A stretch of 64,000 bases of DNA from Blasia pusilla (lineage: Eukaryota): positions 16,740,001-16,804,000 of the forward strand of contig CM114271.1 in assembly GCA_050084515.1 (NCBI GenBank). Direction: 5' to 3'. The notes under the pieces are model-generated. The model was given only the letters and a program-made list of their open reading frames with translations, was not told where the DNA came from and ran no database searches. Shown here piece after piece: positions 3,301 to 44,955 of the stretch (within the stretch, counting starts at the first letter, position 1; each line of letters opens with the position of its first letter). The translations under genes were made by a program, and so were the position numbers.

Positions 3301-3688
3301 GATAATTTCATCATGAGATCTCAGCTTTGAAGTTGCTTTGGCAATCATGCGGGTTCACACATGGCAACAATCATCTTGAAAAAACATCTCGCAAAGCGAG
3401 TAAGAGACGGTGGGGGAGTGTTCTCCAAAACTCAAGGAAGCTAGCCATCTTTGAATGTGCGCGGACGGCACGTGTTTGATGAAGATGTCGGTACGCGAGC
3501 GAGCACTGGCAATACTTTACATTCTTCAAGGCACATGTCTGTAGATGGCCGCACGCGAGCACTGGGAAACACTCGTGAAAAAACTGTACATTCTGCCACC
3601 GCTGTTGAATTCCTGTATGAACTGCGCGAAGGATCTGCAGAGCAACTGACGCACGGGTTCGATGGCAAGAAAGAAAACTGATAGCTAT

Positions 3689-7400: not shown

Positions 7401-7929
7401 TGATTCCGAGTTCCACATTGGCCTCAACGTCCTCTTCCTCTATTTTGTGTGATATGGAGTCTCTATTCGACTCCAATCAGCAAGCCATCCCCAAACACCA
7501 TCTACAACCACATGCTCTAGATGAATGCCATAACAAACATAATGTCATATATCATGTAGAAAAAAGTGTTAGACTATTCTAAATTATAAAGAAATATCCA
7601 AAACAACCAAAAACATGGAAGAGGGGATATACCCAAGAAGGCATGTGTGAATGTCTCAACTCCACCTTGGATGAAGGACTGTGTCCCCTTCCATGTCATG
7701 TGTCACATCATGGTTGGTTGATAGGTAGAATTCTACTCTATCGATGATGTCACTGGTCAACAGGTTGTTCATACATAACTTCATTATGAATGGTCAGATT
7801 AGATTGGTCACAACCCCGTTGCCGTGGGATCAATGTTCTCACAACCCTCTATTTTTCTCGATTTTGATCAAGTGACCTTTTATCGAATCAATGATCCTCC
7901 GAAAACCTAAGTGCACATGTTACCCTTTT

Positions 7930-8973: not shown

Positions 8974-9390
8974 TGTTGGATTCTCAACATCCACTTCTTC
9001 GAGCACCATTAATCTGATCGGTCCCCTTGTACGAGGAGAAGCCTAGATTGATGGTTTTGACTTGGACGTCGGAGGAGTCATAGTAATATGACGTAGGTGG
9101 TTTCAGGAGTAGCGTTACTAGGATTATCCAACCTTATATTGCATCAGGGTGCCCCGCACCCTGATGCAAATTTTTCTATTAATAAAAATGAAGAAAAAAA
9201 GGTAAAAAATCCTAGTTTCCCGAGTGAAATATTCAAGAGCCGTAGCAATAGCGCATTCTCGTATGTCGAGTTATCTCCATGTTCAGGTTCCATTGAAGCT
9301 CTTCTATGAGCGCACGGACAGACTAGGCCACTTTGTATCTCTAAGTTTTGTAAAGATTTCAGTGATTTCGTCGCTTTCTGTTTTCTCACA
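8974..9390 (+). repeat. Copia 5' LTR (417 bp)
   Basis: Begins tgttggattctc, ends ttttctcaca, followed by the PBS. Confidence 0.95.
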
Positions 9391-9456
9391 TGGTATTAGA
9401 GCATTAGGTTTTCCAGTATTTTGGCGATCTAGTGTGTTTGCACAAAGTCTTGAGAG

Positions 9457-12400
9457 ATGGCTACTTCTTCGTCAGTTCGTGCTTGCCCTCCCCCGATGGG
9501 TGAAGGGAAGTTAGATGGGTCTAACTATACATTGTGGAAGTTCAAAATGAGAACTGTCCTCAAATTATTTGAGATCTGGGAGACGGCCACAGGGATCGAT
9601 TTGCATCCACAAGCTACTTTGAGTTATGCATGTTCATCTTCATCTAGGGATATCAATCCTGTTGTATTGCTGGAATGGAAACGCACAAAACGTTGATGCT
9701 CTATATGCGATTGTCACGAATATAACTGATTCTATCATAACTCTCATTCAACATACAACCACTGTTGCTGAGGCGTGGAACATTCTGAAGAATCAGTTTG
9801 AAACGAGGAATGAGACCCACATTCAAAATCTGGAGAATCAGCTTACGTCCGAGAAATTTTTCAGAAGGAGAAAGTGCAGAGCAATTTTTTAGAAGGATCA
9901 AAAATCTTCAAGATCACATGGCGTCCGTAGGAATTTCAAAGTCTAGCCAAGATTTGGCACATCGGTGCATAAGGATTTTGCCTCCAAGGTATGACAGTTT
10001 GGTCATTGCATTGAATACTCAAGTTAGACCCACGCCGCTTACTTTTGAACAATTTAGTGCAATGTTGGTAGAAGAGGAAATGCGCTTCAAAGCAAGAGAG
10101 GGAAGTGATGTAGCATTTACTGCCAACATAGAGAGAGGTAGAAATTAGGATTACACTTCAAATATCAAGAAGAAATTTCTAAGGAAAGCCTTCAATTAAT
10201 TTTATTTTGGTAAGCTAGGTCATCTTATCAAAGATTGTAGAAGAGAAGTCAGGATGAGAAGAACAGATGTTTAAGACCTAAGAAGGAGTCTGGAAATTTT
10301 GTAGAACTAGGAGAACATGAAGTAGATGCTTGGGTAGCAATCGAAGATTTTTTCACATAGGTAGAACATTCCACTAAGTCAAAGAGTGAAGATGCATGGA
10401 TGCTCGATCGTGGAGCATCTAAGCATATGACCAATCATAAGGATTGGTATAACTCCTTGCAGTCTCTATAGGAGCCCATCGTTATTATTGTTAGAAATAA
10501 TGCAAAGTGCCTTGTAGAAGGGAAAGGCACAATTTCTTTGGTCTCACAAAAAGGAGATGAAAAGAAGTTAACCGATATACTCTACGTACTAGAGTTGAAG
10601 CGCAATTTGATTTCAGTAGCAATATTATGTGATAGTGACCTAGAAGTTTGTTTCAAGAAAATTGGAGCAGTCATTGAGGATGCCGATGGAAAAGTAGTGG
10701 GTGAAGGTATACAACATGGAAATATCAACAAGTTGTATGCTTTCATGACAAGTGTAGGTACACATCTTAGTAGCAGTAAGTTGTGGCATGAAAGATTTGG
10801 TCACTTAAGCTTTCCCTTACTAAGTCAGATGCAGAAATCTGGCATGGTTGTTGATTTACCAACAATTTCTGGAGTGTCGGATACATATGAAGCTTGTATG
10901 ATGGGCAAGCAACACCGACAATCATTTCCACAAGAGTCCAACAATAGAGTAAAGGCTCCTCTAGAGGTGATTCATGCTGACCTCTATGGTAAAATAAGAA
11001 TAGTGGCATTAGGTGGTTCTTCCTACTTCTTTTTAGTTGTCGATGATTATAGTAGGAAGATGTGGGTGTATTTCCTTTGTGATAAGGGAAGTGCTTTTGG
11101 AAAATTTAAAGTATGGCACAAGCTGGTTGAGAATGAGACAGGAAAGAAGGTACATAAGCTTCGCACTAATCGAGGATTATAATTCTTATCAACAGAATTC
11201 AACAAATATTTGGGGGAGCATGGAATCAAGCGACAATTAACCACGTCACATACACCACAACAAAATGGAGTTGTTGAGTGTCGAAACCGTACAATGGTAG
11301 AGATGGCAAGATGTATGATGAAAGCAAAAGGTTTGACAAAAGGATTTTGGGCTGAAGCAGTTAATACTGCCATTTATATTCTAAATAGAAGTGCTACCAA
11401 GGCATGACTCCTCATCAATCATACTCAAGTAAGGTACCATCAGTCCAACATTTCAGGACTTTTGGTAGTGAGTGCTTTGTACATATTTCTGAAGCATCCA
11501 GAACCAAGCTGGAGTCCAAGAGCAAGAAGTGCATCTTTATGGGATACAGTGATGAGTCTAAAACTTATCGCCTATGGTGTCCTAAGGCAAAGAAGATGCT
11601 TGTGAGTCGTGATGTGGTGTTTCAAGAACATCCTCGTCAAGTGGCGGATATCAATGGTCTGTCCACATTATCATCAAACGAAGAGATAACCCACCAGAGC
11701 ACACCACCAATGTTTACACCAGATCATCAAGAAGAAGAATTTGGTGATGATTACAAAGAGCAGCCTGCTCTTCCACTACGGTCGTCATACCCTAAGTGGA
11801 TAAAGCAACTCTTGGATGGTAAGGATCCACCTGCAACTGATGAAGTTGTTACACATCCAAGGAGATCCAAGAGACTAGAGGAGCAAAATAGAGCTTCCGC
11901 ATATCTTGTCAACATGGACTTGATGATAGAGGTCTTGAAGGTGGAAGAGCCATCATGCTTGGATGAGGCCCTTGCTCATCCTCAATGGAGAGAGGCCATG
12001 CAGATGGAGATGGACGCTATTCAGAGAAATGAAACTTGGACTTTGGTTGAGAAGCCAAAGGACAAGAAGATAATATGCACCAAGTGCGTGTACAAGACCA
12101 AGTACAAGTCGGACGGTACGTTGGATAAATTCAAAGCGAGATTGGTTGCACAAGCATGCTCAGAAATCAAAGGTTTTGACTACTATGAGACTTTTGCTCC
12201 TACAACAAGGATGATAACCATTTGAATTGTTCTAGCGGTTGTAGGAACAAGATGTTGGCCTTTATACCAATACGATGTGAAGTCTTCCTTTCTGAATGGG
12301 AGTCTCGAAGAGGAGGTATATGTATCTCAACCACCAGGTTTTGAGACACCCGGATGAGAAGAGAAAGTGTGTTTACTTCATCGAGCATTATATGGGTTGA

Positions 12401-13430
12401 AGCAAGCCCCAAGGGTATAGTATCAACGAATAGATACATTCTTCCGAGAGAAGGGTCTCATCAAGAGTCCATCAGAAGAAAATTTGTACGTGTTCTGCGA
12501 AGATGGGATGTATATGTTGATAGTCTTGTATGTGGATGATCTGATCATCACATGAGACCACATTAAGAAAATAGAGGAAATGAAGGGAGTGTTGAAATCT
12601 GAGTTTGAAATGTCAGATTTAGGTCTTTTAAACTACTTTATAGGGCTGGAGATTTGGCAACACTCTGATTCTATTTTCTCTCTCAATAAAAATATGCTAG
12701 AGAAATCTTGAAGGCATTCGGGATGACTGAGTGTAAGGCAGTGGTCTCGCCAATGGAGGTAGAGTTGAAACTCTTGATGGAGGATATTTCACCATTGGTA
12801 GATGAAAAGTTGTACAGAAAGCTTGTATGCAGTTTGATATTTTTTTGTAACACTAGACCAGACATTAGCTTTGTTGTGGGAGTGTTGAGTAGGTTCTCAA
12901 CTAAGCCTCGTGAGAACCATTGGAAGGCAGGGAGGCGTGTGTTGAAGTACATCAAAGGCACTATCAAGTACGACATCACCTATGGAGCCGGGAAGGAAAT
13001 GACAGCTTTTTGTGACTCGGATTGGGCAGGAGATTCAAATTCTTGGAGATCAGTTTCGGATTATTACTTCTTGGTAGGATCAGGTATGGTGTTATGGGTC
13101 AGCAAGAAGCAACCTAAAGTGGCTCTTTCTTCTACCAAGGCAGAGTACAAGGCGTCTTTTTATGCTTCTTATGCAGTGTGGTTGAGATGGATATTTGAGG
13201 ACATCGGAGAAGCACCAGAAAGTGCTATTGTAATGTGGTGTGACAATCAGAGTTGCATTGTCACAACACATAATTTTTTGTTTTATGCTCGTGCGAAGCA
13301 CATAGAGATCCAGTATCATTTTATTTGTGAATTGATCAAGAGAGAGGTTTTGAAGTTAATCTATTGTCCAAAAGAGGATAACTGTGCAGACATCTTCACA
13401 AAAGCTTTGAACGGAGATCAGCTTCACTGA
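9457..13430 (+). pseudogene. Copia gag-pol pseudogene (stops and frameshifts)
   Basis: Fragments: gag (KLDGSNYTLWKFKM), GAG-pre-integrase (LWHERFGH), integrase (VVDDYSRKMWVYF, TPQQNGVVE), RT (KYKSDGTLDKFKARLVA), RNase H (FCDSDWAG, KHIEIQYHF, ADIFTK). Confidence 0.93.
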
Positions 13431-13497
13431 CATCTGAAGGGTCTTGGCATAGGTCCAAGACAATAGTCCACATGAGAATGGATATTGAGGGGGGGGG

Positions 13498-13950
13498 TGT
13501 TGGATTCTCAACATCCACTTCTCTGAGCAGCATTAATCTGATCGGTCCCCTTGTATAAGGAAAAGCCTAGATTGATGGTTCCGACTTGGACGTCGAAGGA
13601 GTCATAGTAATATGATGTAGGTGGTTTCAAGAGTAGCGTTACTAGGATTATCCAACCCTATATTGCATCAGGGTGCAGGGCACCCTGATGCGTTGCGGGG
13701 GTCCAAGGGCGCAGCCCTCGGAAAAAAAATTCTATCAATAGAAATGAAGAAAAATAGGTAAAAAAACCCTAGTTTCTCGAGTAGTGAAATAGTCGGGAGC
13801 CGCAACTGTAATGCATTCTCGTATGTCGAGTTATCTCCATGTTGGGGTTCCATCGAAGCTTTTCTGTGAGCACACGGACGGACTAGGCCACTTTGTATCT
13901 CTAAGTTTTGTAAAGATTTTTGTGATTTCGTCACTTTCTGTTTTCTCACA
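13498..13950 (+). repeat. Copia 3' LTR (453 bp)
   Basis: Direct repeat of 8974-9390 with an extra ~35-bp GC-rich segment near 13690-13725. Confidence 0.95.
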
Positions 13951-14184: not shown

Positions 14185-15950
14185 TTATAACATACTAAAA
14201 ATACGAACAAACCTTAATGCCTTCGAGTTAATCCTATTGAAGCACTCAACACTTGATTGCCTATCAAAGAGGTTATTTGTCCCTAGCCAAGGGTAATAAT
14301 TCTTCACTCTCTTTATTGAGTGCCTAGCAGTCAACACATAGTCCAACTTCCCATCCTTCTTATTCAAATAGAATGGGCACTCCATAACGTAACTTATTAG
14401 TTTGAATATATCCCCTTTCCAATAGTTCTCTCGACCGCTTCTTTAAACTATGCAAGTTTAACTTCATTAAGTGTATATGAAGCTTTTGAAGGCATTTGAG
14501 AATCTAGTACGACCTCAATCTTATGATTGATTTCCCTCTTTGTTGGTAATTAAGTCATTAAAAAGCTCCTTTATCAAGACGTCCCTAAATTCCTCAACTA
14601 GTGTCCAAAGTATTTTGGGGAGTATCACCAAATGTGACTCTTAATCTTGCGTGTTATGTTTGTAGTCCCTAATTCAAGCATCAAGCAGAGAAAATCATCT
14701 TCAAACTCAACTTGGTTTGTCCTTGTAATCACATTTAACTGCAACTCCTCTTTCATATGAATTTCTAGCTCGAACCAAAATCATATGAAACAACTTTCTT
14801 CTCACTAAGATGCTCAACCTTACTGTGAGCCTTAACGGTCTTTTTCTTAGCTCACCTCATACCCATTCACGAAGGTGTTCCCTAAGACCCCTACTATCCC
14901 ATTCATGTTGCAAATGGTGAAATTCTCCTTCAACTTGCACGCCTTGTAGCCAAACATTAACCCTTAGGATAGATCTGATACTATGTAGGATTTACCATTG
15001 GAAAAGCCCACCTAAAGTAGGTTAGTCAACCTTGGTGGTCGACACATCCCACTTCTTCACTAACTACGGGCTCAAGAAGAATTACAAAGCATATGTATCA
15101 ATAAGAAACATAACATTCCTATTAGAGATCTAGGCTATTAGGTACGCATGATTGGATGTCCTCTTGTTAACTTGATGGAATACCTCTACGTCACCTTCCA
15201 ATAAGTGCTTAGTAGCAAACGTAATCATGCTCCAATTACTAATCGTAGGCTTTGGACTTACCTAAGCTTTGTGCTCGGATGTACTCGCTATAATTATAAC
15301 AATCACTCTAGCTCCAATAAACTTCGGGTACAAAGCTTTGCTCTGCCTATTGGCACTCTAGAATAAATAGATCCCCAATCTAAAGTTTGAACTCCTCCGA
15401 ACTCAAAGAGGACACGATGCCTGCATGTTCCTTGTGATGGGATGTCCACCATTGGATTGTATGATCCTTAAAAAATGTTCTTGCAATAATGACATTCTCC
15501 TTGAGCTTGTCCTCCACTATAGCCAATTATGCTTCAAATTACATCTTGATTTTGGTGAGAAACTCCTTAACTCTACATTACCACCCCATTCCTAAAAATG
15601 GAATGGTCAAATTTTTCTTAGAAAGGTTCTTGCTAAATTTTAGATATTCGATCCATCTCCAACTTAGAAATTTTCTTACTCTATTGGATTATTTGTTATA
15701 ATATGATCTTCATTAGGTTCATCATTTGAACATAAATTATTGGGTCATTTAATTTTGGAGCGGATCTTCCAATTGAACGCTTCCAATCTAGGACATTCTA
15801 ATCCCTAGATCTCGTTGGTGTGTCATATTATTCATCAGCACCCAAATACGCATATATTAAACATATTTTTTGGATCAACCAGCCTTGTGTTTCTTGAGTT
15901 TGAGTCTTGGGTCGCCCTTCAAGTTCAATAGACCTAAATAGGGTTAGATA
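14185..15950 (-). mobile_element. Old, heavily decayed Gypsy-like remnant(s)
   Basis: 14185-14385 translates RVKNYYPWLGTNNLFDRQSSVECFNRI, resembling Gypsy RT (KNxYPLPRIDDLFD...FSxID). The rest is poorly resolved and the boundaries are approximate. Confidence 0.45.
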
Positions 15951-15953
15951 CCA

Positions 15954-16091
15954 TGTCGTGCACATACATATCGCTACACAACATACATCGCTCGTCACAT
16001 CTACACCACACAACACCGATCTTCCCCACACACGGGTCCATCCACACATGTACAAAAATAAACTCATACATATACATGGAGATCACACAAC
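15954..16091 (-). repeat. Terminal repeat A (138 bp), copy 1
   Basis: Direct repeat of 16568-16705 with about 5 substitutions. Confidence 0.95.
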
Positions 16092-16565
16092 AAAAATAAA
16101 GAGTAGTAAAAATGGCACACCCGGCCTAAAACTCCACTCCTCAATCTACATCGGCATATCGAGCCTCGTCCACCCTGTGCTATCAAGGAATCCGGACGCT
16201 AGCACCCTAGTCCTAGCTCACACACATACAAGGGAGGTGCTCCAACAGCCCAACATGAGAAAGATGGCTTAGGAAAGCCATCTTCCTCTCTTATATAGGT
16301 TGGGAAGAGCCAAAAGGCTCTTCCCCTAAAAATAGCCCTTCCCTTGGTAACTGCGCAGTTACAGTTCAAAAAGTGTTTGAGTCAACAAGTCACCCGGCTG
16401 TAAAAGACCTCAACATGAAAGTTGTCAGAAACGACATTCCTGACACAATGGACCTATCCTCAACCTCATCTGACACTCTGGGACAAAGTTACACTCAAGA
16501 TAGTCCGCTGGCTCCTACGCCCTATCCACGATAGATCTAGGCCTATCGGCTACCCAGATGTGACA
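16092..16565 (-). repeat. Terminal repeat B (474 bp), 3' copy
   Basis: Direct repeat of 24751-25222. Confidence 0.95.
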
Positions 16566-16567
16566 GT

Positions 16568-16705
16568 TGTCGTGCGCATACATATCGCTACACAACATAC
16601 ATTGCTTGTCACATCTACACCACACAACACCGATCTTCCCCACACACGGGTCGATCCACACATGTACAAAAATCAACTCATACATATACATGGAGATCAC
16701 ACAAC
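16568..16705 (-). repeat. Internal repeat A' (138 bp), preceded by a PPT-like taggggggcg
   Basis: Copy of 15954-16091; separated from B by 2 nt (gt at 16566-16567); cgcccccctag at 16706-16716 is the minus-strand purine tract. Confidence 0.93.
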
Positions 16706-16781
16706 CGCCCCCCTAGCTGGCAGTTGGATCCCCCTAACTCCAAATAGAAAATATCACATCTCTCTGACATGACCTACTACC

Positions 16782-16925
16782 CTATACATATCTCGGACAC
16801 ATCCATCGTCCCGTGGGAACCACATCAAGAGGGGGGTTCAGACATGACATATGCCACCCTCGAGAACAACCATCACATACCAACATGGTGGCTGCACCCC
16901 TCGCAGATCCGCACAACATACACCT
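16782..16925 (-). other. PHD zinc finger at the C-terminus of the integrase
   Basis: CMLC...MLVCDGCSRGWHMSCLNPPLDVVPTGRWMCP: C4HC3 PHD pattern; the last Cys appears mutated to Tyr. Confidence 0.9.
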
Positions 16926-17127
16926 CAAGCCTGCAGGTACCACTGCCAAGCTCGGATCCACCATCCCATTTACATTTGGAAGATGACATGGCGCACAATT
17001 GCGCACATGATCCTTCCAAACCATACCATCCCGTCCCTCCAACATGAGGACTCCGATCGATAATACCTCGCACGCACAGGATCGATGCGCGCAGGTGTGC
17101 GATGACATCTAGCGTCGTGGGTGCCGC

Positions 17128-18303
17128 CTACTGTAAATACACGTAATCTCCAGGATGAAACCTCCTAATCCCTGGACGAAAACCTCCTCCACGAATGGTC
17201 GCGTACCTCAATGTATCTCTATGCTGGGCAATAGCTAAGTTCTCAAAGGCCATAGGCATAACTCTACAAAAAAATTTTGCCCTCTGAGAACATGCTTGCA
17301 CCCACACAATTAGATCATCAAGATCTAACACCTCCGCCATGTCACGTCGAATCGCTGTAGGTAAATCTGGCTCTCTCCCAAAGAGCAAAAAGTATGGTGA
17401 AAATGACGCCAAGGATGCCTGCCGACTAAAGCGATAACCCATAGCCAACCATGGCAACTGTAGGTCCCACTCCCTCAATTGTCCCCGCTGCAAGCCATAC
17501 TTGCGCAATCCTCTCTTCACTGTCTGTACCACTCTCTCTGCCAACCCATCCGCCTCAGGATGATCCCTGGACGTGGTGTGGTGATCTATTAGCGCCTAAT
17601 CACACAAGGCCTGAAACTCTCCCCTGAACTCGGTACCCTGGTCAGTCAACACCTCCGCCGGTGCACCAAAGTGACTAAGCACACGATCTAGAAACGCATA
17701 AGCTGTTCCCTGGCTCGCCTTGTCTGGTAGTGCCACCAACTCTATCCACTTGGAGAAATGCTCCACCATGACCAACACGTACCTATGATGATGCCCTGTC
17801 AATGGCAAAGGTCCCGCAAAGTCTAAACTCCACCGATAACCTAAACCCATAATCGGCAAAGGATATAACTGCGGAGTGGGAGCATTGAAGGATGCTTGCA
17901 CTTTGTCATATACCATACATCTGGCCACAAACTTCTGTACCCCAGTATGCATGCCGCGCCACCAATACTGAACCTAGAGTAAGCTATAAGTACGCTTTAC
18001 TCCGAAATTTCCCAACTCCTCATGGGCATGTCGCACTACACGTGCTCGCTGGGAAGGATGAGGTACCACTAGTATCCTACCATCTCCCCATACCCGTAAA
18101 ATGTGAGTCCCCTCCCACCTGAACCTCTTGGCTCTCTGTAGGATCCGATCCCGCTCCCTAGCACTCACTGTACTCGCAATGACGCCAGTGCGCAAGAACT
18201 CCACAACCTCCATGTCGTCATGGATATCACGACCACTTGTCGCCTCCTCACTAACCTCCGGATCCAAAGACTCATCATCCAATCCCACCACTGGAGTCAT
18301 CAC
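17128..18303 (-). pseudogene. Gypsy integrase (H2C2 + DDE core), with in-frame stops
   Basis: RHAHEELG, RWSLDFAGPLP, VMVEHFSKWIE, LTDQGTEF, AERVVQTVKRGL. Confidence 0.92.
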
Positions 18304-19668
18304 CTATGGCTGACCTGCCATAGTCAACCAACAAAGATAGGCATATGCATGCCAACCGGGCACCATCTCCTCATCACTCTCTCCGTGCCATCGAGCTCCC
18401 GTGACGTCTCTCTGACTCGGACATGGGTTACGACTCAACCCATCCGCATCCTGGTTCAACCAACCTGGCCTATGAACCACCTCAAACTCATACTCCTGTA
18501 GTAATAGAGCCCACCTGGCAAGCTTTCCTGTAAGCTTTTCGGACTCCATCAACCACCTCAACGACTGATGATCAGTGATAAGTGTGAAAGGGTTTCCGAA
18601 TAAATAGCACCTAAAATGTGCCACGGCCCATACGGCAGCCAAGCACTCTCCCTCGTAGGAGCTGTACTTTGCCTCTGTAATGTTGTTCGATCGGCTCGCG
18701 TAAGCCACAACGAACTCCCTCTCCTCGTCATCCCTTTGAGTAAGCACTGCTCCTAGACCCAACATGCTCCAATCCGTATGTAACTGGAATGGGCGACCCC
18801 TAACCGGTCTCTGTAAAATGGGTGAGGACGTCAACCTGTCCTTGAGCTCTTGAAATGCTCGCTCTTGATCATCTCTCCACAACCACACTTGATCAAGTCT
18901 CGTCAACAAGGTCAAAGACTTTGCGATCGCACTAAAATCCTTGACATACCGTCGATAGAACTTTGCCAGTCCAAGAAATGCCCGGACTCGACTCACATCT
19001 GTAGGGAGTGGAATCTGCGCAATAGCCTCTACCTTCGTCTGCTGAACGCCTAACCCACTCGGGTATATGGTGTGTCCCAAGTACTCAATCTGCTCTTGAA
19101 AGAATCTGCACTTGCCTGGATGTAACTTCAGTCCATGTAACTACAATTGCCGAAACACCTCCTCCAAGTGTCGCTCATGCTCCTCAACCGTGGAACTGAA
19201 GATAAGAATATCATCTATGTAACATCGTACAAAATCCAAGCCAGCCAGAATCCTATCCATCACTCTCTGAAACTCCGCAGGCGCGTTCTTCAATCCAAAT
19301 GGTAAGAACCGCCACTGATACAAGCAATCTCTCCCAAACCGATCTATCCCCCAGAATGTTGTCTTCTCCTTGTCCTCCAACCTGATAGGAAGTTGATGAT
19401 AGCCAGCACGGAGATCTAAAGTACAAAAGATCTTTGCATGCCCTACCGCATCAAAGATCTCCTCAGGAGTAGGCATGGCATACCGATCTGACCTCGTCTG
19501 TCGGTTGATAGGACGGTAATCTCCACACATCCACCTATCCCTCCAATTGCCATACATATCCTTCTTCGCCGGCATGACTGTGGCAGATGCATACTCCCCA
19601 TGTGATAACTCCACAAGTCCTGCCTCCAACAAGTCCTGACTCCTGCTCTGAATCAAGGCTCGCTCCAT
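18304..19668 (-). pseudogene. Gypsy reverse transcriptase and RNase H
   Basis: CGDYRPIN, LDLRAGYHQ, LPFGLKNAPAEFQ, YIDDILIFS; RNase H LHTDWS, YSSYEGECLA, TDHQSL, DADGLSR. Confidence 0.95.
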
Positions 19669-20164
19669 ATCACAATACCTGTAGGGTCAACGAAAGATTG
19701 GCGTATCACTAGCCAACTCAATCCGTATCCCGGGACCCTTTAGCATACCCAAGTCTCTCATACTGAAGGAAAAACAATTGACATGCCCTCTCAGAAACCT
19801 ATGAACTCGCCGTCGCTCTCCTCCTATCATCTTGAGACCTATCACAGGCTCCCAAGTCTCCATCGTGACCTCACTCGGAGAGGACGCAACCTCCGGCTTT
19901 GGTTGCTATGTAGCAATCCTAGCCACCTCCGCAACAGCCACTCCACTTTGACCTCCTACACCATGCTCCACATCCGAAAAATGAACATGTGCTACTCTAG
20001 CCGCCTTCGCACTCTCTGATCGAACGACGTCCCAGGAAGTCCATGGGTGCCTATCTCTCCTCGTCTCGCCCCCAGCCAATGCTTGTACAGACCTTGTAGG
20101 CAATGGTCCAGCTCGTGGACGAGACGGCATGGATGACACTCGCATCCGTCTTTGCTCAGCCATA

Positions 20165-21120
20165 CCTAGGCTGACTATCCATGTGAGACAGTTGAGGTCC
20201 ATCGCCTGCCCCAACACCTGTCTCCGTGATGCCTCAGTCATCCCTGGCACCGCCGTAGTACTGGTAGTGAACCCCATGGCGCGCTCGCGCTCATCTGCTG
20301 TAGGCTCCTCCGATAATCCGGTCACCTCATCCCAAATCATGCCTGGCCCTCCCTGACAAAAGGCATGGGATGCTGGGAAGCTCACCAACGTAGGTAAGGC
20401 TGCCCTCAACTCCCCCACCCTATTGGCCGTGGCCAAGGGTGGTCTATCATCGCGTGTCACCACCTGAGATCGACGCCCTGAGTCCAAAATAGCATCCACT
20501 GTGAGATGTAGTGCTCTCTGGACTCCACTGTAGGCTCGACTCAGTACCTCTGATGGCATCAGGTTCGTCCACCATAGTCGTGGATGATGGGCACGTGACC
20601 CAACTCTCGCAGCATCTAATAACACAGGAGGTCCCAACCAAGACCTCACCTGATGTACACTCGTCATCACACGTGCATGAGTATCTCCCAACAACGGCAC
20701 GTTCTCCAAAATGTACGCTGGAGAACATATCTGACTCTGTTGCAAGTGTCGTACTACTCGCGCAAACATCTCCCAAAACATCCCGACCTCGGATCCCGCA
20801 ATCCAAATCCTCGGCCAGCTGATGAATGACCCTGACATGGCCATCCAGCAATCACCAAATGAATGGTGCCAACTCTATCCAGATCCCGCGCCCCCACCAA
20901 AGATATGTCGGCGGGTAGCGTATGCTGGTATCCCCGTACTGCACATACCGACAACAACTCATGATACCTCTGGACCAATCTCGCCACTTGACGTAATGAT
21001 ACTCGCCGCGCGGTCTCATCTCTCTCCACGTAAAGGTACTGATGCACCCATATGCCCGCCTGCAATATGGCAGCCAATCCGGTGCTAATCCCTCCGAAGA
21101 GAACTAACACCCTAACACCC
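20165..21120 (-). pseudogene. C5 cytosine DNA methyltransferase domain (DNMT3-like) within pol; single -1 frameshift at ~20783
   Basis: Motif I VLVLFGGISTG, II YVERD, III DI, IV AGWPCQGHS, VI LENV, VIII RAHHPRLWWTN, IX ERERAMGF, X RRQVLGQAM, all in canonical order across ORFs 20754-21446 and 19906-20844. Confidence 0.92.
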
Positions 21121-21499
21121 TCCTCTGGGCACTGCCACACAACAAGTGTGGTATCTAGTGGGGTCATCGTCTCCACTCCAAGACCCCGATCGCCACGTGA
21201 CTCTCGCTGCTCTGGGATAAAAACATGACTCCACGCCTGCCTCACGAGATCGTCGGCACTCCTCTGTAGCTCTCGAGTCGTACCCCACAATGGTGAAGAG
21301 GCCTCACCAACATGGGAAGAGACACCCGCCATTGCCTGTCTCTCCGTGGGACTATCCGCTACTGGGACATCCTCCGCATGTGCGTTCCCCTCCAACAACT
21401 CTCCTGTCCAGATAACACTACCTCTGAAAGCCGCCAATGTGGCCATAGACTCGCCTCGTGATCAACCACCTCGTCCCGCAAACTACACGGGTAACTGAC

Positions 21500-21862
21500 T
21501 CATCCGGCCGTCACCTGACCGCCATCCTCCCAGAAGTCAAGGATGAATCCTAGGGGATATAACACTGTACTCCCCACCAACACATTGTATGACTCAGCTG
21601 GTGTCGTAATCGCACGTGTGCGCACCATAGCACTATCCGTCGCATGCTCTGGCTGGACTCTGACAACAATCTCTTGTCGAGTCATATACTGAGTGGGTGA
21701 TACGCCCCCAATAGAGGTCTGTATCTGGAAGGGACAAGGCTCAATGTTGGCCTTCCGTAACCCCAACGCTAAACACGCCGCCTTCCCTAACATCAAGGGT
21801 TGCGCTCCCGAATCAAGTAGGACGCGATGCGGGTGGTATACCGTCCCCGTCGGACTAACCAA
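21500..21862 (-). pseudogene. Retropepsin-type aspartic protease
   Basis: RVLLDSGAQ catalytic motif and downstream YNVLVG. Confidence 0.85.
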
Positions 21863-22499
21863 GCGAAATACTCCGGCTCGATTATCGGTAACACTACTCC
21901 AAGTGTCACCATCGCCGCTCTATGGCGGTCGAGTGGCATATCTACCAACTTCACTGCCGCCGCATGCCATGACTCTGTGGGGAACGTCCCAAGCACCGGC
22001 TCTGAGGGCAAGTCCACCACCTCCTCAACTACCTCTGAACAAGAAGCAGTCATCTCTCCACGCTCACACAACGTGGCGGCCAACCAGAACACCTCATCTG
22101 GTCCAACTCCCAACGTCGCCAACTCTAAGGCGGAAAATAGCGGAGTCTGACTCACTCTAGTGGCCACCTCCAACACTATAGTCGACACCGACTCACTCGA
22201 GCCGGCATAGGAGTTGTCACTCCAACTCCTCGTGACGTCGGCGTAGGTGCTCGAATCAGAGGCACCGTTGGTCGCCGAGGCACCATCGATGGTGTGTGTA
22301 GTGCCTCCGACAATGTGAACGACTGTGGAACCCTGGCCTGCCGCCCATCGGTCCCCTCTGGTGGGTCAATCTCAACTCCACCTCTCGATGGCTCGGTGCC
22401 TCTCGCAGCTTCCCGAGTCACCACTGGAGCTGCCTCAACCTGGGCTGCACTACACATGAATCCCATACTGGAGAGATCCTCACCTGGGTCAGGGTAAGA

Positions 22500-23946
22500 G
22501 GTAGAGACTGGAGTCACACTAGTTGCTCGCACTCCGTGCCTTCCTAAGCCGCATCATCGTCATGGCGGCAATCCTCTGCTCAAGCTTCCGATCGATCGTG
22601 AGAGAAGCGCCACTCTACGGTGCTCTGCTCCATCTCCTCGGCTGGTGGTGGTCCTCTACCACCACGTCTAGGAAGAACTCCCGACCTCCCCGGGACGGCC
22701 GCCCCAAGCCCTCGGCCTACCTGCGGACGTGCCCCTCGTCGAAGGTCAAAACATCTATCCCTAGTGTGACCATATCTCGTGGCAATGGTCATATGGTGCC
22801 GTGGTGGGGCCATCCTCTCGTGGCTCTGAGCAATCGGAGGCGCTGGTGGTCCTCTCCCATGTTGTGGGCGATCTCTCGCCTATGAGCCCCTCCACACGTC
22901 CAACAAGACCACATCGGTCCCTGCTGGGCAACATATGTAGGTGCGGGTCGTTGCCTCATAGGCTCACGGTACCCGCCCTGCTCTCTAGGCACACTGGCCC
23001 GCTCCTGTGGTACTGGTGCTTGCTGTGGCACCTGTGGGGTCACCGCCGCTCATGGACCTGTCAACTCTCGAGAAAATCCAACAGTCACTACCTGCTCCTC
23101 ACTCATGTTGAGCTCAATACGCTCAGAAAACTCAAAGACCACCTTCAATGTGGGCTTCGCTGTGTGAATCAGCACCGCATCTCAGACTCTCCTCCGTAGT
23201 TCTCGATCCAGAACCCCGTACCAATACTGGACTGATTGCGCCTTAGTCACTCCAAACGTAGCAATGATCAGCCTCCTCATGCGTGTGAATGCCTCTCTCA
23301 GACTCTCACCCGATCGTCGCTAAAAATCCTGTAGACTCTTCAGCTTGTCGGTGCGTACGCCCTGGTAGCTCTTCCCCAACTTTCGGAAGAACTCCACTGT
23401 GGGGCTGAAGTTGGGTGGCCCTATACCGCCAGAGGTCTCTGCCACATCGCCTGTCTCACTGCCCTCCTCTCCATCTAGTCTCTGGGCTGATGGTGTGGGT
23501 CTCCCTCCTCTCACAATCCCATTATATGCCTCACGACCATTAGTGGACACATACCCTGGAGCCCAATACATCCTCCAGGCATCGATCTCTACTGAATATA
23601 GTGATCGAAACTCCATGTAGTCATCCATCGAAGGACCCTCCAAGTGCTGGAACAACCCCTTCCATGCCATGAAAGGGTTGAACCGTGTCGGGGTCCGTAT
23701 CTCCTGGAAGTCGCACCATGTGTCGAACTCCTGGATGAAATCATCTAAGTCGATGGTACCCACTGCACCCGAGAAACGACGCATGCCCCAGTGGCCCATG
23801 TCGTCCATCTCCGGCCAAGTACTATTGTCTCTGTCGGTGATCTCGTCACCAGACCCAGTGTCCAATGATGACGATCCAGTCACGGATGGATGTCGAGGGA
23901 GCTCCTCACTGGTAAACCCTCGATATCTCACTCCACTCCGTGTCAC
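22500..23946 (-). pseudogene. gag region with zinc knuckle remnant
   Basis: RFSGAVGTIDLDDFIQEFDTW, KLKSLQDF; CWTCGGAH knuckle at ~22880-22910; located upstream of the protease. Confidence 0.75.
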
Positions 23947-24736
23947 ACCACTACCACTGCTCGCACTACCCTGTTCTTTCGAACCCTGGAAGAACGCCGT
24001 GATGACAAACCCTGTCTCACCCGATCAAGCACTCAGACTCATCGAGAGTCTCCCACACGCCTCACTAGCTCACCTATGCTAATGTCAATCCCGTGATGAC
24101 ATACCCGGCCTCACGCACGCTCAACACTCGGGCTCACCATGAGCCTCCCAACTGACTCACCTAACCTAGCGACACTCTCTCGGGTCATACACGCGACTCC
24201 TACTCGGAAACCGCCGTATATCCACCAACATGCTATACATGAAAAGAATCTACACTCGTCACCATCACTGCACCCATCTAGCACCAGCTACTACCCGATA
24301 CCCGGCACTCTCAATCACACACGACAAGTGCGGGAAAAGGGACTCGAATGGGTAACTTGATCACGCCCATCCGCGCCCAGCCCGTCCAGCCCGTCCGCGC
24401 CCGTCCCTTGCCCGTGACCTAACCCTAGACCGGCCGCGACCTAGCTAGCCGTCTTTACTTAACAGCCCCTCGGCGGCTGCAAGACCCAAACTTTCCTTTC
24501 TTCTCTCTCTCGACACCCTCACTTCCGTACACCCGACGCCCCACCACACGCTACACTCGGCTGCTGTCCCCCATCAATCCGCACCAGCAAAATCTGAGAA
24601 AAAAGGACAACGCTTCCGCCCACGGCCTTCCGAACAGAAAAATGACACAAAATGTCACATACACGTCTCCAGGGGCTCCCGACCAAGGCAACTCGCTTGC
24701 CTACCTGCAAACAACGAATTCCCACCGGCCCCCTGA

Positions 24737-24750
24737 CATCTTTCTCATGT
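24737..24750 (-). promoter_or_regulatory. Candidate self-priming primer-binding site
   Basis: catctttctcatgt (24737-24750) abuts repeat B' and is the exact reverse complement of 24912-24925; there is no TGG-type tRNA PBS here. Confidence 0.75.
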
Positions 24751-25222
24751 AAAAATAAAGAGTAGTAAAAACGGCACACCCGGTCTAAAACTCCACTCCT
24801 CAATCTACATCGGCATATCGAGCCTCGTCCACCCTGTGCTATCAAGGAATCCGGACGCTAGCACCCTAGTCCTAGCTCACACACATACAAGGGAGGTGCT
24901 CCAACAGCCCAACATGAGAAAGATGGCTTAGGAAAGCCATCTTCCTCTCTTATATAGGTTGGGAAGAGCCAAAAGGCTCTTCCCCTAAAAATAGCCCTTT
25001 CCTTGGTAACTGGCAAGACAGTTACAGGGGGTGACTGGTCAACAAGTCACTCGGCTGTAAAAGACCTCAACATGAAAGTCGTCAGAAACGACATTCCTGA
25101 CACAATGGACCTATCCTCAACCTCATCCGACACTCTGGGACAAAGTTACACTCAAGATAGTCCGCTGGCTCCTACGCCCTATCCACGATAGATCTCGGCC
25201 TATCGGCTACCCAGATGTGACA
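24751..25222 (-). repeat. Terminal repeat B' (472 bp), 5' copy, with TATA box (tatataa, 24956-24950)
   Basis: Direct repeat of 16092-16565; the element starts tgtcacatctgg at 25222. Confidence 0.95.
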
Positions 25223-27619
25223 ACCAACCTAACCCCTCATGCACAACATAGGAAAGTTATTCAAAACTTGGGACATAATTCTTTGATAGTCTAGGGCTAT
25301 AAAACATCACTCGTACAACTTGTAGTCCCAATTGCCCAATGGATCTCAAATGAGTCTCTAAGAGAAACTCCATATATGAGTAACAGATCAAGGTCCATGT
25401 TAAGGTCCAAAACTATACTACCCAGACTTTGCTTGATATCAAACCCCTAATGCCAACCTCTCAATTCATCCCATACCCTTAGTTCAACCCCCATGCAAAC
25501 CCTACAATATAGTTCCGGAGGAATTTAGCCCCTCCTTCATCCAAAGAAATTGTGTAAGGGCTTCTTATGGCCTTTAACCCAAACTATCATTCCAAAAATT
25601 TTGGGACTTTTTCTAGTGAATTTTTCTAAATCTTTAGTGCCTTGGAATTGACTCCTTACAAGATTTCTAACACCATCTTATCTATGAACAAAAATATATT
25701 GGATGTAATTGTTATCATCTCAAACGTGATGAACCAAAAACTTTCAATTCGGTTCCAAGCTAGGTTGGAGTCTTCTTAGAGTCCAACTCTTGTGGGATGT
25801 GAGATCTTCTCAAGTTTCACCATGTCTTTGGTTATGCTCTTCTTGTTCACAACATCTATCATCATTTGAGATGCTCATTAAGGCTTAGGTCTTGCTTATG
25901 CCAATCATGTCTTGTTGGTGAAACTTTGATGTGTTACCATCATAGTGTTAGCCCACAAGATTTTTATGTTTTGCATTGGCGCATTGGTTGTGAGCGCCAT
26001 GATACTTCCTCCTCCTCCCTCCCCCCCAAGAGGATTAATTAATCCTTTATGACATTTAAGATGAATCAATATATATATATCTTCAACTTCATGTTCCTTG
26101 GAGCTTGGATTGTTATGCTCTCATTCCTTCAATACTTGAGGCACAACAAAACTTGCCCCCTCTCCCTCCCTTCCCCTTCCCCCAAATAATAATGATTCTT
26201 TCTTTCTAGTTGCAAAAATGAAAATTTAGAAACAATTTTAAAGAATTCTTCATTTTCCCATTCACCATTGATACTTTTAAGGGAGGATAGCTTCTTGATT
26301 TCCAAACACCTCTTTGACTAGTGCACGACAATGGATAGCAAGAAATTATTTGGTAGCACGAGCGACAAGAATAAATTTTTTGGAATATTTGGAAACCAAA
26401 ATAATTTCTCTCGCGCATGAAATATGTTGTACATTGGTTTATGGTAATTAACACATTCCTCCCAAATGAGTTCTTCACTTTCCTCATTCCTACTATTTAG
26501 AATGCTAGTTAAATAGCATATGAAAATCACATAAATTTAATTCCCTCTAAAATTTTGTAATTTAATGAAAACAAATATTTGATATAATTTTAAGAAAAGT
26601 ATAACTTGAATAATTTTGACGCTTGGAAAAAAGGACATATGATGTTCATTGAGCTTTCACATTCCTTTCTACTAATAATAGTTCAATTTTTTCACTCATT
26701 ATACATACTTCCACTTGATATTAGCTAATAAAGAATGTACACGGTTGTACAGATTCCATAAGTCCATTATTTCAAATAAAATAAGAATAATCCCTATCAT
26801 TTTCTCATAAATATTTTTTCTAATGTAAGATTTTCCTCCTAAAATTTTTTTCTTCCTATGATCCCTTCATTTTTTTTACTATGTGTTTTATGCATATAAA
26901 GAACCATTAAACTAATAATTATGCAAGAGGATTATGGAAAATATTGTAGGTAATCACTTTCCAAAATTTAAGAGATGCCATAAAGTTTGGCTGTGGTTAA
27001 AGATATTCACCTAAAAATTAATAAAACTATACGATGAATAAATAAAGTGCTAAGAAGTTATCTTTTAAGAATAGGAGGTATCTCTAAGAATAATCATCAA
27101 TTAGGTGATATTTTTAACTTGAGATATGATATCAATTTAAGTAAATAAATTTAAATTTTAAAATTACCTCCAACCATAATATCTTTCATAATTTGAGGAT
27201 GCTTGTAATCCTCATTTATTAGGCAAGAGAATCTATCATTTGAAATCATCTAAATTATTTGGAGAATGATTCCTCCATAAGTTCATTTAGTATAAATACT
27301 TAAGTTATATAGATCCTTCATACCATTTCTTAAGAGTTGTATTAGAATTTCCACCTTTGGATTACGATGAAGTGTACAATGATTCTAATTTTGGGATAAT
27401 AATTTTAGTGTCTTGTTTCAACATTAACTTCCACTATGTTTACAAGTTTCTTTTTAACGAATTATCTTATTTCCACCATTCTCATCATTAGAAGAAAAGT
27501 ATGGGTTTTTTGTGATTTACCAATGAAATACTTTTGAACATAATAAATCAAATTATGACTCTATTATTTTCTTTTCTTTTCTGATAGCTCATTCAAATGA
27601 GATATAAAAAAATTGACTA

Positions 27620-32027: not shown

Positions 32028-35000
32028 ATCGCTACACAACATACATCGCTGACACCGAACACACACACACAAACACGCACGATCCCAAGCTAACTCATGA
32101 CACCCAAACACAGTGACGAGAAGTACCAAAATATTTCCAATAAAATAAGGTTAAATCTCTCTCACAACACCATAGCTCTCACATATATGCACTCTCACAT
32201 ATCTCTCTCAATGTCAAACCAAACCCACTCTCCTAATGAGAGGCTCGAGTTACACTCACAAGGCAAGGTACCATAGCTCCGCTGCCTCATGCGAAGAGAT
32301 TCAACATAGAGAGAATGAGCTCTCAAACTCTCTCTCCTTGAGGTATACCCCTCCCTTCTCCCAAGCTCTCTCCATGGTAACCTAGGCTCCCAAGTCATCT
32401 CCTTGGCTCTCGACCTGATGTAGGAGGTCAAGGGTCACTTCCCAAAATAGAAATCGACCACAGAGTCAAAATGGCAATTACCCAAAATAGTAAGTTCTTC
32501 AATATGGCTCCAAATGGGCCGAAACGAAGGGGAAACCTGTTATCTCACATTTCTCAGGGCCTCAGTAGGTCATCCTCGACCTCTTGAGTGTGTCCTCCAC
32601 TACTCGCAAAGGCGCTCTACTAGATCTTACCGATCTATCCTAAAAGATGTGACAATTATCGTGTGCATACATATTGCTATACAGCATACTTCGCTCTCAT
32701 CAAACACGCACACAAACACGCACGATCCCATGCTAAATCATGGCATCAAAACATAGAGGTGAGAAGTACCAAAATGTCTCCAATCGCCCCCCTATCTAGT
32801 GGTTAGGTCCCTCTAACTCCATATAATTATCTATCCTTACCTACTATGACATACATCTCTAGGACGCTAAGAGCAAAAAGTTTGGGTGCTTATGTGGCCC
32901 CATCGTTAGTCGTCTTCTTGTCATCCATATTATAGACATAAGTCAAAATCTAGAACTACCTACTCTATGTACATCTGGGATTCATCCATCGTCCATGAGG
33001 AACCCTAGTGAGAGGTGGCGTCAAACATGCCATATGCCATCCTCTCAAACACCCATCATAGACTAGCATAGTGGTTGCACCACGGGCGGAACAACACAAT
33101 AGACATCATAAGCCTATAAGAACTACTGCTAAACTTGGATCAACTTTACCATCAATGTTCGGAAGGTGACATGGCATATATTTATGCACATGTCCTTCCA
33201 AACCATACCATCGCGTTCCTCCAATAAGAAAATACCATATGGTAAAATCTCACACACTCTTAAGATAGTGCGCCCTGCAGTCACATCCAACGTCGTGGGT
33301 GCCGTTTGCTGTAAGTAGACATAGTCTCCCTGATGAAACCTCTGGATAGTAGGTCGATAACCATCTCCCCAAATAGTTGCATACCTCAACGTATCTCGAT
33401 GCTGCGCAATCGCCAAGTTCTCAAACGCCATGGAGATCAATCTCTGAAGCAACTGAGCCCTCTAAGAACATACTTGCAACCATACATCAGGGTCATCAAG
33501 GTTCAACATCTCACCAACGTCTCGACAAATGGCCACAGGTAAATCTGGCTCTTGGCCAAAAAGTAGCAAGTACGGTGAGAAAGACGCTAAGGATGCCTTC
33601 CTGCTGAATCTTAATCCCATGGCCAACCACGGGAACAGGAGGTCCCAATCTCCTATGTGACCTCTCTGCAAGCCATACTTTCCAAATCCTCTCTTCATCG
33701 TCTGAATAACCTTCACCGCTAGTCCATCCCTCTCAGGATGATCTCGCGAAGTGGTGCGATGGTCGATCAGCGCCTCATCACACAAGGCCTGAAACTCCGC
33801 AAGGCTCTGTACCTTGGCCTATCAACACCTCAACTGGTACCCCATAATGACTTGACACTCAATCTAGGAAGGAATACGATACTCCCTCACGCTTTGTCAA
33901 GCAATGCAACCAACTCTATCCATTTTGAGAAGTGCTCAACCATCACCAACACATAACGACTATGGCGCTCTATCAAAGATAACGGTCCGGAAAAATCCAA
34001 ACTCCATCTATAACCTAAACTCATGATCGGAAGTGGATGCAATTGTAGATTTAGAGCATTGAATGATGCCCGGACCTGATCACAAACCATGCACACTCAC
34101 AACAAACTGTTGAATGTCAGTTTGCATCTTTTGCCCCCAATACTATATCTGGAACAAACTATATGTTTGCTTCACTCCAAAATGACCCAACTCCTCGTGG
34201 GCGTGACGCACCAAACGCGCTCTCTGTGAAGGATGAGGCACTACACGCACTCTACCATCCTCCCAAACTCGCAACACATATGTCCCCTCCCACCGGAACC
34301 GTCTGGCTCATTGTAGGATCTGATCCCGCTCTCTAGCACCCATTGTGCTCGCGATGCTGCCAGTACACAGATACTCCAAGACAACTTTATTGTCAAGAAT
34401 GTCTCAGCCACCTGTCGTCTCCTCATCGGCCTTTGGATCCAAGGACTCTCCATTTGACTTCGCCATCGAAGTCTTAGCAATCTAGCTGTCCATAGCCAAC
34501 CAACCTAAATAGGCTAACACGTGCCATCCTGGCACCAACTCCTCATCACTCTCACCATGCCAACAAGCTCTAGTCACATCTCGTTGACTCGAGCATGGAT
34601 TACGACTCAAACCATCTGCATCCTGGTTGAGCGTCCCAGGTCTATCCACCACTTGGAAGTCATACTCTTGCAACAAAAGAGCCCATCTCGCAAGCTTCCC
34701 TATAAGCTTGTCGGACTCCATCAACCACTTAAGTGGCTGATGATCAATAATGATGGTAAAGGGGTTGCCAAATAGATAAAACCTGAAATGTGCCAGCCCA
34801 CACTGTAGCCAAGCACTCACCCTCATATGAGCTATACTTTGCCTCTACAGCATTGTTTGAGCGACTAGTGTAAGCCACCACAAACTCTCTACCATCATCG
34901 TCATGTTGGGTGAGCACAACTCCAAGCCCCAACATGCTCTAATCAATATGCAACTGGAAAGGCCGCCCCGTGATCGGTCTCCTCAATATGGGCGCGGACG

Positions 35001-44728: not shown

Positions 44729-44846
<118 letters not shown>

Positions 44847-44951: not shown

Positions 44952-44955
<4 letters not shown>

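Follow-up and report, generated by a model that had tools for sequence, protein, structure and literature searches.

A DNMT3-bearing Ty3/gypsy-type retrotransposon with permuted terminal repeats in Blasia pusilla, and the routes by which it may integrate

Structure and coding content of the element

The stretch of DNA analysed here (the window; 64 kb of Blasia pusilla, positions 16,740,001 to 16,804,000 of contig CM114271.1 in NCBI GenBank assembly GCA_050084515.1) contains at 15954-25222 an element, E1, that lies on the minus strand and is read in that orientation throughout. E1 is a decayed Ty3/gypsy-type retrotransposon encoding, in order, gag, protease (PR), a DNMT3-like cytosine-5 methyltransferase, reverse transcriptase (RT), RNase H, integrase and a PHD finger, and its terminal repeats are split into segments A and B, which occur in the order TGGT/TG-B'-internal-PPT-A'-CA-AC-TG-B-A-CA/TGGT (PPT, polypurine tract; slashes mark boundaries). 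The outer termini are TG...CA and are flanked by a 4-bp target-site duplication (TSD), TGGT (ACCA on the plus strand), a match with a chance of 1 in 256 at fixed positions; CA and TG also stand head to head inside the element as CA-AC-TG (16564-16569), and the PPT, AGGGGGGCG (16706-16714), precedes A', not B. An earlier note on this DNA, made from its letters alone, had proposed this order of parts, the TG...CA ends with a 4-bp TSD, the internal CA-AC-TG and the position of the PPT, and reading of the minus strand confirms all of these, repeat coordinates included.

Comparison of the repeats aligns B (16092-16565) with B' (24751-25222) as a pair of ungapped blocks, 99% and 98% identical, the overall figure being 96.0% over 475 columns when a divergent patch of 27 nt is included, and A (15954-16091) with A' (16568-16705) at 96.4% identity (5 differences in 138 positions). 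The boundaries read ...TTAGGTTGGT / TGTCACATC... between 5' flank and B', ...CTTTATTTTT / ACATGAGAAAGATG... between B' and the internal region, ...CTAGGGGGGCG / GTTGTGTG... between the internal region and A', ...GCGCACGACA, AC, TGTCACATC... across A', spacer and B, ...CTTTATTTTT / GTTGTGTG... between B and A, and ...GTGCACGACA / TGGTATCT between A and the 3' flank; the terminal letters of both B' and B are also given as TTATTTTT. E1 and a second copy, E2, each contain the junction word CGAYANNTGTCAC once, making two occurrences in the window where 0.08 are expected; 0 of 100 shuffles attained that number. The features of the repeats are as follows (U3, R and U5 being the 3'-unique, repeated and 5'-unique parts of a long terminal repeat, LTR).

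25223-25226, minus strand: TSD, 5' copy (TGGT in element orientation; ...aggttggt/tgtcac), equal to 15950-15953
24751-25222, minus strand: B', the 5' repeat, beginning TGTCAC; U3 promoter part, R and U5; 96-99% identical to B
24949-24956, minus strand: TATATAAG box (TATA) in B'; second copy in B at 16290-16297
24912-24925, minus strand: putative RNA 5' end (R start) and self-primer CATCTTTCTCATGT, 31 nt past the TATA box; exact complement of 24737-24750
24737-24750, minus strand: putative self-priming primer binding site ACATGAGAAAGATG, immediately after B'; complementary to 24912-24925
16706-16714, minus strand: PPT AGGGGGGCG, immediately 5' of A', read from the sequence
16568-16705, minus strand: A', putative start of the reverse-transcribed LTR, last letters ...CACGACA, by repeat comparison
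16566-16567, minus strand: spacer AC, 2 nt, separating the final CA of A' from the initial TG of B, read from the sequence
16092-16565, minus strand: B, the 3' copy, by repeat comparison
16253-16266, minus strand: second copy of the putative self-primer CATCTTTCTCATGT, in B, by sequence repeat
15954-16091, minus strand: A, the terminal copy, joined to the end of B, last letters ...CACGACA, by repeat comparison
15950-15953, minus strand: TSD, 3' copy (TGGT), read from the sequence

Two local features of B and B' may be recorded here. A repeat pair made in one replication cycle is expected to be identical; in the 27-nt patch (16354-16380 versus 25013-25037) B and B' differ at most positions, the remainder being 98-99% identical, a difference that could stem from gene conversion or from replacement of a short segment once the element had inserted. 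An inverted repeat, AAGATGGCT...AGCCATCTT, lies at 24925-24960 (and at 16266-16300) between the TATA box and the self-primer word, across the predicted transcript start, and may form a hairpin at the RNA 5' end.

The coding region identifies the enzymes available to the element. One frame of E1 matches the Pfam families RVT_1 (1.8e-31), RT_RNaseH (1.5e-34), Integrase_H2C2 (7e-12) and rve (3.7e-14), in this order, and a PHD finger (PF00628, E 1.2e-9) follows the integrase in a different frame. No Pfam match to tyrosine recombinase (Phage_integrase, PF00589) was obtained in the six frames of E1, nor in the homologous proteins P0004, P0017 and P0001. The element is dead, seven stops interrupting the frame from RT to the end of integrase and a frameshift lying within the methylase, and the recognisable coding features are these.

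22888-22905, minus strand: remnant of a gag-like CCHC-type knuckle (CWTCGG...), motif found by eye; Pfam gave no match
21803-21820, minus strand: aspartic protease motif LLDSGA; PF13650 lies at the same relative place in the homolog P0004
20269-20909, minus strand: DNMT3-like cytosine-5 methyltransferase, frameshifted, by motifs; PF00145 at E 0.051, under the cut-off
20823-20846, minus strand: methylase PCQ motif, in one frame
20689-20706 and 20269-20292, minus strand: methylase motifs ENV and ERERAMGF, respectively, in another frame
19066-19566, minus strand: reverse transcriptase, RVT_1 (YIDD at 19204-19221), by Pfam
18490-18879, minus strand: RNase H (RT_RNaseH / RT_RNaseH_2), by Pfam
17896-18057, minus strand: integrase H2C2 zinc-binding domain, by Pfam
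17557-17838, minus strand: integrase catalytic core (rve, DDE), by Pfam
16791-16922, minus strand: C-terminal PHD finger, shifted frame, PF00628 at E 1.2e-9

The intact relative P0004 carries PR-DNMT-RT-RNaseH-integrase-PHD and matches PF00145 at 8e-8, its methylase part having DNMT3A/B/C as best PDB matches (1.5e-8); the P0017 methylase matches PF00145 at 2e-8. Two domain orders occur in the clade, with DNMT before RT (E1, P0004 and elements of the L017 type) or between RNase H and integrase (P0017, L029). The best protein relatives of E1 are metagenome proteins and liverwort proteins (Calypogeia fissa, 75%; Marchantia polymorpha, 57-73%), together with one Sphagnum protein.

The layout in other copies, and the class of the element

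The permuted layout is not peculiar to E1. E2, whose interior is 73% identical to that of E1, has the same layout, its 3' end reading PPT-A'-GATA-AT-TGTCAC-B-A and its 5' end flank/TGTCAC; its TSD is unreadable because the terminal A lacks its last ~16 nt. A partial third copy, E3, ends in B-A with ...GCATAACA (B-A-...AACA) and carries at the position of A' ~480 bp of unrelated sequence that has no other match in the window, so that it is uninformative on A'. Expanded (GA)n microsatellites lie in the B of E3 (44730-44842 and 44958-45022) and also at 59230-59265; the B of E2 has merely short GA-rich stretches where that of E3 has long (GA)n.

32028-41500, minus strand: E2, with an A'-spacer-B-A 3' end and PPT AGGGGGGCG(A)
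32657-32784, 32655-32656, 32142-32654 and 32028-32141, minus strand: A', spacer AT, B and A of E2, respectively, the last ~16 nt of A missing
41437-41500, minus strand: B' of E2, cut down by deletion, by repeat comparison
43429-45242, plus strand: E3, partial, with the end of the internal region, PPT at ~43925, B at 44423-~45100 and A at 45113-45242

A scan of metagenome contigs yielded 80 loci, amongst which 16 distinct ones (three duplicate pairs having been merged) hold the 3' end of an L017-type relative. Twelve of the 16 read internal-PPT-A'-NN-B-A (NN, the 2-nt spacer); of the remaining four, one is rearranged, and in three PPT-A' gives way to unrelated sequence immediately past ...GACA. 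L012 is closer to E1 and reads PPT-A'-GACA-GC-TGTCATG-B and flank/TGTCATG-B'. All eight readable 5' ends read flank/TG-B', with B' passing directly into the internal region, and A was found at none of them; in no copy read does the PPT stand next to TG. The layout B'-internal-PPT-A'-NN-B-A is accordingly a family rule, a clade-wide trait, which answers in the affirmative the earlier note's question of whether it is general. The case named there as fatal to its reading, namely conventional B+A LTRs with the PPT beside TG, did not materialise, and the canonical B+A model was rejected on the same two observations. Since the layout is common to lineages, those of E1 and L017, that are only ~42% identical in RT-integrase amino acids, the trait is old.

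The junction word is present in 13 of the 80 loci, with one match each and all 13 within the clade, whilst 12 more distant Gypsy loci of the same scan, serving as a control, are plain flanking LTR pairs without the word. L029 has an intact open reading frame (ORF) of 2027 codons with DNMT between RNase H and integrase (1400-7480); its junction word lies at 9308-9321, and the sequence from there to the end of the contig shows no terminal A. A scan of viral contigs gave nine loci, none of the E1 clade. Chimeric contigs may arise when a repeat family is assembled from metagenomes, a caveat for the 12 standard and the three exceptional loci alike. Those exceptions (L004 at 2455, L008 at 6364, equal to L009 at 14102, and L013 at 3490) have PPT-A' and then mutually different unrelated sequence exactly past ...CACGACA; they could be mirror forms, as defined below, simple forms (from a 1-LTR circle or linear DNA) or chimeric contigs. 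The locus L002, 9600-17129 (equal to L020), contains an internal inversion with one breakpoint within 15 nt of the B/A joint and the other in the coding region, ~640 nt being lost; either this joint was genuinely rearranged or the contig is a chimera.

In the host this family is very abundant. With ~1% of each run sampled, raw reads of the host species aligned to E1 at 85% likeness reached a depth of ~1100-1800 over the E1 interior, runs with small word shares, air metagenomes amongst them, being left aside. In 777 and 765 host reads the CA end of A passes into unlike sequence with a consensus agreement of 0.33-0.34, which indicates many diverse flanks, and 698 host reads run through A'-NN and on into the start of a B of the E2 type. 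Of ~2850 places at which the reads of run X15 differ from E1 (15700-25500; runs X15 and X16 were compared), 973 are C>T and 861 G>A, a predominance to be expected from deamination of methylated cytosine in a silenced repeat.

Elsewhere in the window, a Ty1/copia-type element at 8974-13950 (plus strand) has ordinary LTRs (8974-9390 and 13498-13950, 89-92% identical) and ORFs in the integrase-then-RT order, and provides a conventional contrast a few kb from E1. Just left of its LTR, at 8272-8842 (plus strand), a 570-bp fragment 67% identical to the E1 methylase region, in opposite orientation to E1, is probably part of an older copy of the clade that was broken by the copia insertion.

With respect to class, the clade has the Ty3/gypsy Pol order PR-RT-RNaseH-integrase, with HHCC and DDE motifs and a DSG motif upstream, and a 4-bp TSD in E1, L014 and L017 (none in L018), plant Ty3/gypsy TSDs being 4-5 bp in the part of the source consulted (PMC6317226). 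It does not have two complete, identical TG...CA LTRs adjoining PPT and primer site: TG and CA are the outer ends of E1, yet they do not bound the unit that runs from PPT to primer site. The split direct repeats, A1-internal-B1-A2-B2, are those of the DIRS order, but the clade lacks the tyrosine recombinase and has TSDs, and is for both reasons not assigned to that order. It shares both features of the Gypsy-DNMT3 kind, i.e. a Dnmt3-like methylase within a Gypsy Pol and a DIRS-like repeat arrangement.

That kind has been described before. The legend to Fig. 4c of a 2018 paper by de Mendoza et al. (PMC5890265) presents KnitGypsy-Dnmt3 of Klebsormidium nitens as a Gypsy element with a DNMT and the same, DIRS-like, repeat layout; as in E1, a Dnmt3-like methylase forms part of a polyprotein whose Pol is of the Gypsy type, and the likeness is one of description. 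Its host is a charophyte alga, whereas the E1 clade comes from liverwort DNA with metagenome relatives. The portion of that paper's text available to us contains no TSD, PPT, primer site, CA-NN-TG junction, mechanism, PHD finger or bryophyte members, and a 2026 preprint, as far as its accessible part goes, merely names 'streptophytes (Gypsy-DNMT3)'. E1 is a bryophyte member of this published kind with permuted repeats, and the layout itself is not new. Any claim of novelty made for the observation is thereby weakened; our literature search found no discussion of mechanism or of bryophyte members for such a layout.

Ends probably made by reverse transcription and ends probably used by integrase

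Two sets of ends can be distinguished in these elements. As regards the first, a G-rich PPT abuts A' in every copy read (E1, E2, E3, L012 and the 16 distinct L017-type loci). E1, L014, L017 and L018 lack a primer site of the tRNA type (TGG... no more than a few bases from B'), and self-priming was accordingly tested. The 14 bases that follow B' (24737-24750) are the exact complement of 24912-24925, 31 nt past TATATAAG, a match of 14 nt that was reached in 0 of 500 shuffles; in L014 the complementarity is 13 nt (0 of 500) and in L017 it is 10 nt (10 of 500). In all five elements tested the self-primer word lies 30-34 nt past a TATA box, with sequences that differ between relatives. The complementarity past B', clear in E1 and L014 and weaker in L017, suggests that members of the E1 clade may be self-primed. 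Self-priming from a site after U5 that is complementary to the transcript start is described for Tf1/Sushi and Tcn1 elements in the accessible part of PMC6317226; they likewise have no tRNA-type primer site, and differ from the E1 clade in having ordinary LTRs and a chromodomain, where the latter has a PHD finger, a DNMT and permuted repeats.

A PPT beside A' and a self-primer site after B' together would set the start of U3 at the start of A and the end of U5 at the end of B, such that the reverse-transcribed LTR is A-NN-B, as the earlier note had proposed, and as is supported by these two signals. L005 is instructive in this respect, since its terminal repeat begins ~135 nt early at a pseudo-PPT (...TGGTGG/ATACCAT, against the normal ...GGGGGG/ATACATG), which argues that plus-strand priming determines where the terminal A begins.

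The second set of ends is that of the integrase. A 4-bp TSD accompanies TG...CA termini in three of the four complete copies (E1, TGGT; L014, CCTT; L017, AACC), and the last letters of the terminal A are CA, or the form to which C-to-T decay has turned it. With the rve domain found, no tyrosine recombinase matched and TSDs in these copies, the earlier note's contrast between this element, with a DDE integrase and a TSD, and Ngaro/PAT is upheld. In each of the 17 copies read, the CA-NN-TG spacer measures exactly 2 nt, as AC, GT, GC, AT, AA or TG, and the arms beside it are partly inverted repeats, e.g. ...GTCACGACA / TGTCATGCC....

The B/A joint behaves differently from this fixed spacer. It is aberrant in three of 12 loci, where ~135 nt are added (L005), ~215 nt of B are missing at a TAC microhomology (L015) or 18 nt are added (L019); in the other loci B stops a few bases earlier or later, and one contig of run X1 has ~15 letters resembling a primer binding site between B and A. 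A variable B/A joint beside a fixed A'-NN-B spacer is what would be expected if the joint were made anew in each cycle and A'-NN-B were copied via RNA. The copy-specific indels that the earlier note had suggested looking for at this joint, as a sign of end-joining, are hence present in a quarter of these loci, with the A'-NN-B spacer constant in length.

Possible routes of integration and their significance

The route that we favour, and hold to be somewhat the more probable account, is that the ends of the DNA copy are joined and that integrase cuts at the internal CA-NN-TG, giving the permuted layout. Transcription would begin ~30 nt past the TATA box in B' and would end in the 3' B. As read from the sequence, the minus strand would be self-primed, the RNA 5' end pairing with the site past B' so that the end of B becomes the end of U5, and the plus strand would be primed at the PPT, making the start of A the start of U3. 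The resulting DNA copy would have ordinary A-NN-B LTRs, with the TG...CA ends of the integrase placed head to head inside them as CA-NN-TG. Its own ends (the end of B and the start of A) would be joined as in a 2-LTR circle, before or after cutting, and integrase would open the CA-NN-TG of the LTR adjoining the primer site, with a nick behind CA on each strand, and insert the ends 4 bp apart, with TSD/TG-B'...A'-NN-B-A-CA/TSD as the product. As the CA-NN-TG site would be present twice, in identical form, in a symmetric 2-LTR circle, such a circle is predicted to yield a mirror layout, B-A-NN-B'-internal-PPT-A', in a ratio of 1:1 with this standard one; only the standard product could replicate again, because it retains the promoter-bearing B' upstream and PPT-A'-NN-U3-R downstream.

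Several points weigh against this route. We infer the circle, all the evidence coming from integrated copies, and the transcription start and poly(A) site are predictions. Twelve standard 3' ends stand against at most three mirror candidates (L004, L008=L009 and L013), with no mirror-type end amongst the eight 5' ends, and this rarity of the mirror product demands some unexplained asymmetry. L018 (8 nt, reached in 72 of 500 shuffles) and L010 (7 nt, 253 of 500) show no significant self-primer match, and L018, although complete, has no TSD. Finally, the counts of loose ends in the host reads represent the best ~6 of more than 7700 per run, and canonical A-NN-B ends could escape them. The earlier note's proposal, integration of a 2-LTR circle through an internal att site, thus stands as regards the A-NN-B LTR, the DDE integrase with its TSD and the variable B/A joint, whilst the circle itself is inferred, and a prediction of its simplest form, an equal share of mirror products, does not hold.

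One alternative dispenses with a covalent circle: RT itself would make a linear DNA with terminal redundancy, the plus strand, once the right LTR is complete, jumping onto the left end and copying A a second time, and integrase would then use two different internal sites, TG in the left-hand B and CA in the extra A. This scheme, which we rate as rather unlikely though deserving serious attention, would account for the skew in the counts (12 standard 3' ends, three others at most, and no mirror-type 5' end in eight) and for B/A joints that are mostly exact; moreover the microhomology of L015 and the short extra letters of L019 are, from general knowledge of RT, typical of template jumps. The asymmetry is nevertheless not automatic, as an equivalent jump of the minus strand at the opposite end would yield the mirror product, and the scheme requires integrase to cut at two internal sites far from the DNA ends of an intermediate that is itself hypothetical.

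The order of events may alternatively be reversed, integrase cutting the CA-NN-TG of the left LTR on linear DNA and inserting both of the ends so produced, and host end-joining later sealing the free blunt ends, the end of B to the start of A. Such a sequence shares all the evidence of the circle route, and aberrant B/A joints fit host end-joining equally well; integrated copies alone do not distinguish the two. It would, however, leave a chromosome break until repair and predicts the mirror product equally often, and we consider it improbable.

Much less credible, and in our estimation very improbable, is a route like that of DIRS/Ngaro elements, in which a tyrosine recombinase, encoded elsewhere or unrecognised, would integrate a circle and the split repeats would function as they do in PAT/Ngaro. 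The A1-internal-B1-A2-B2 layout is indeed as described for those elements in the parts of PMC8969392 and PMC4157794 consulted, but Phage_integrase is found neither in the six frames of E1 nor in P0004, P0017 or P0001, an HHCC/DDE integrase is present, and 4-bp TSDs with TG...CA mark three of four complete copies, DIRS elements lacking a TSD according to the accessible part of PMC8969392. A one-off accident, whether nested insertion, local duplication of A, assembly artefact or a B+A element that lost A from its 5' LTR, has in its favour a single copy taken alone and nothing further, and its chances are negligible given the recurrence of the layout in E2, 12 of 16 distinct relatives and a lineage ~42% identical in Pol, eight of eight 5' ends with B' followed by the internal region, and hundreds of host reads across A'-NN-B, so that the assembly artefact or nested insertion named in the earlier note as grounds for refutation fails as well. 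Two further schemes, a primer site at the start of B and rolling-circle copying of a 1-LTR circle, were rejected on paper, giving a single copy of B or no B/A joint.

The route through joined ends of the DNA copy has partial parallels in known systems. PAT, Ngaro and VIPER share with E1 four repeat pieces in the same order and an internal B1/A2 joint that mirrors the joint of the termini in the circular form; they differ in having a tyrosine recombinase, no TSD and a DIRS-type RT, where E1 has an HHCC/DDE integrase, TG...CA, a 4-bp TSD, a PPT and a Gypsy-type RT-RNaseH. In the 1988 paper on TOC1 an 'unusual arrangement of long terminal repeats' was reportedly described. The LTR-LTR joined form has long been held to be a dead end in retroviruses, and HIV-1 integrase is said to cleave a palindromic LTR-LTR junction. 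Such cleavage is described for foamy-virus integrase in the part of PMC1180852 available to us. The retroviral 2-LTR circle resembles the proposed intermediate in bringing CA and TG ends head to head across a short spacer, with a DDE integrase able to cut the junction. It differs in that the retroviral junction exists solely in the circle and linear DNA is the main substrate, whereas in the E1 clade the junction, with a 2-nt spacer, is in every LTR, and the ends made by reverse transcription are not the integrase ends. The insertion sequences IS3 and IS911 form a circle with abutted ends and a 2-3 bp spacer, and an enzyme of the retroviral-integrase DDE fold inserts it with a short TSD. The likeness lies in a DDE enzyme acting on two ends abutted across a short spacer; the difference is that these are DNA transposons whose transposase makes the circle and whose spacer comes from the donor flank, whilst the E1 junction would be inherited in U3 and it is the ends made by reverse transcription that would be joined. 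We regard it as an evenly balanced question whether, in a plant clade with a DDE integrase, the recognition ends have moved to mid-LTR, the joined LTR-LTR form has become an obligatory integration intermediate and the built-in CA-NN-TG is used in the manner of IS3, in convergence with the DIRS/Ngaro layout.

For annotation the consequences are practical. LTR finders will pair B' with B, set the 3' end ~140 bp too early, miss the TSD and maybe call A' and A a separate repeat; in an abundant family such errors spread into repeat libraries, insertion dating and counts of solo LTRs, and recombination between B' and B would leave 'B-A' solos resembling ordinary TG...CA LTRs. Split direct repeats, which are used as a diagnostic of tyrosine recombinases, occur here with a DDE integrase, and the layout hence does not identify the enzyme. 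With a PPT beside A, a candidate self-primer beside B, a fixed 2-nt spacer, TSDs and a variable B/A joint, the E1 clade offers a testable case for the use of an internal junction by a retroviral-type integrase, and its features bear on whether 2-LTR circles can be productive.

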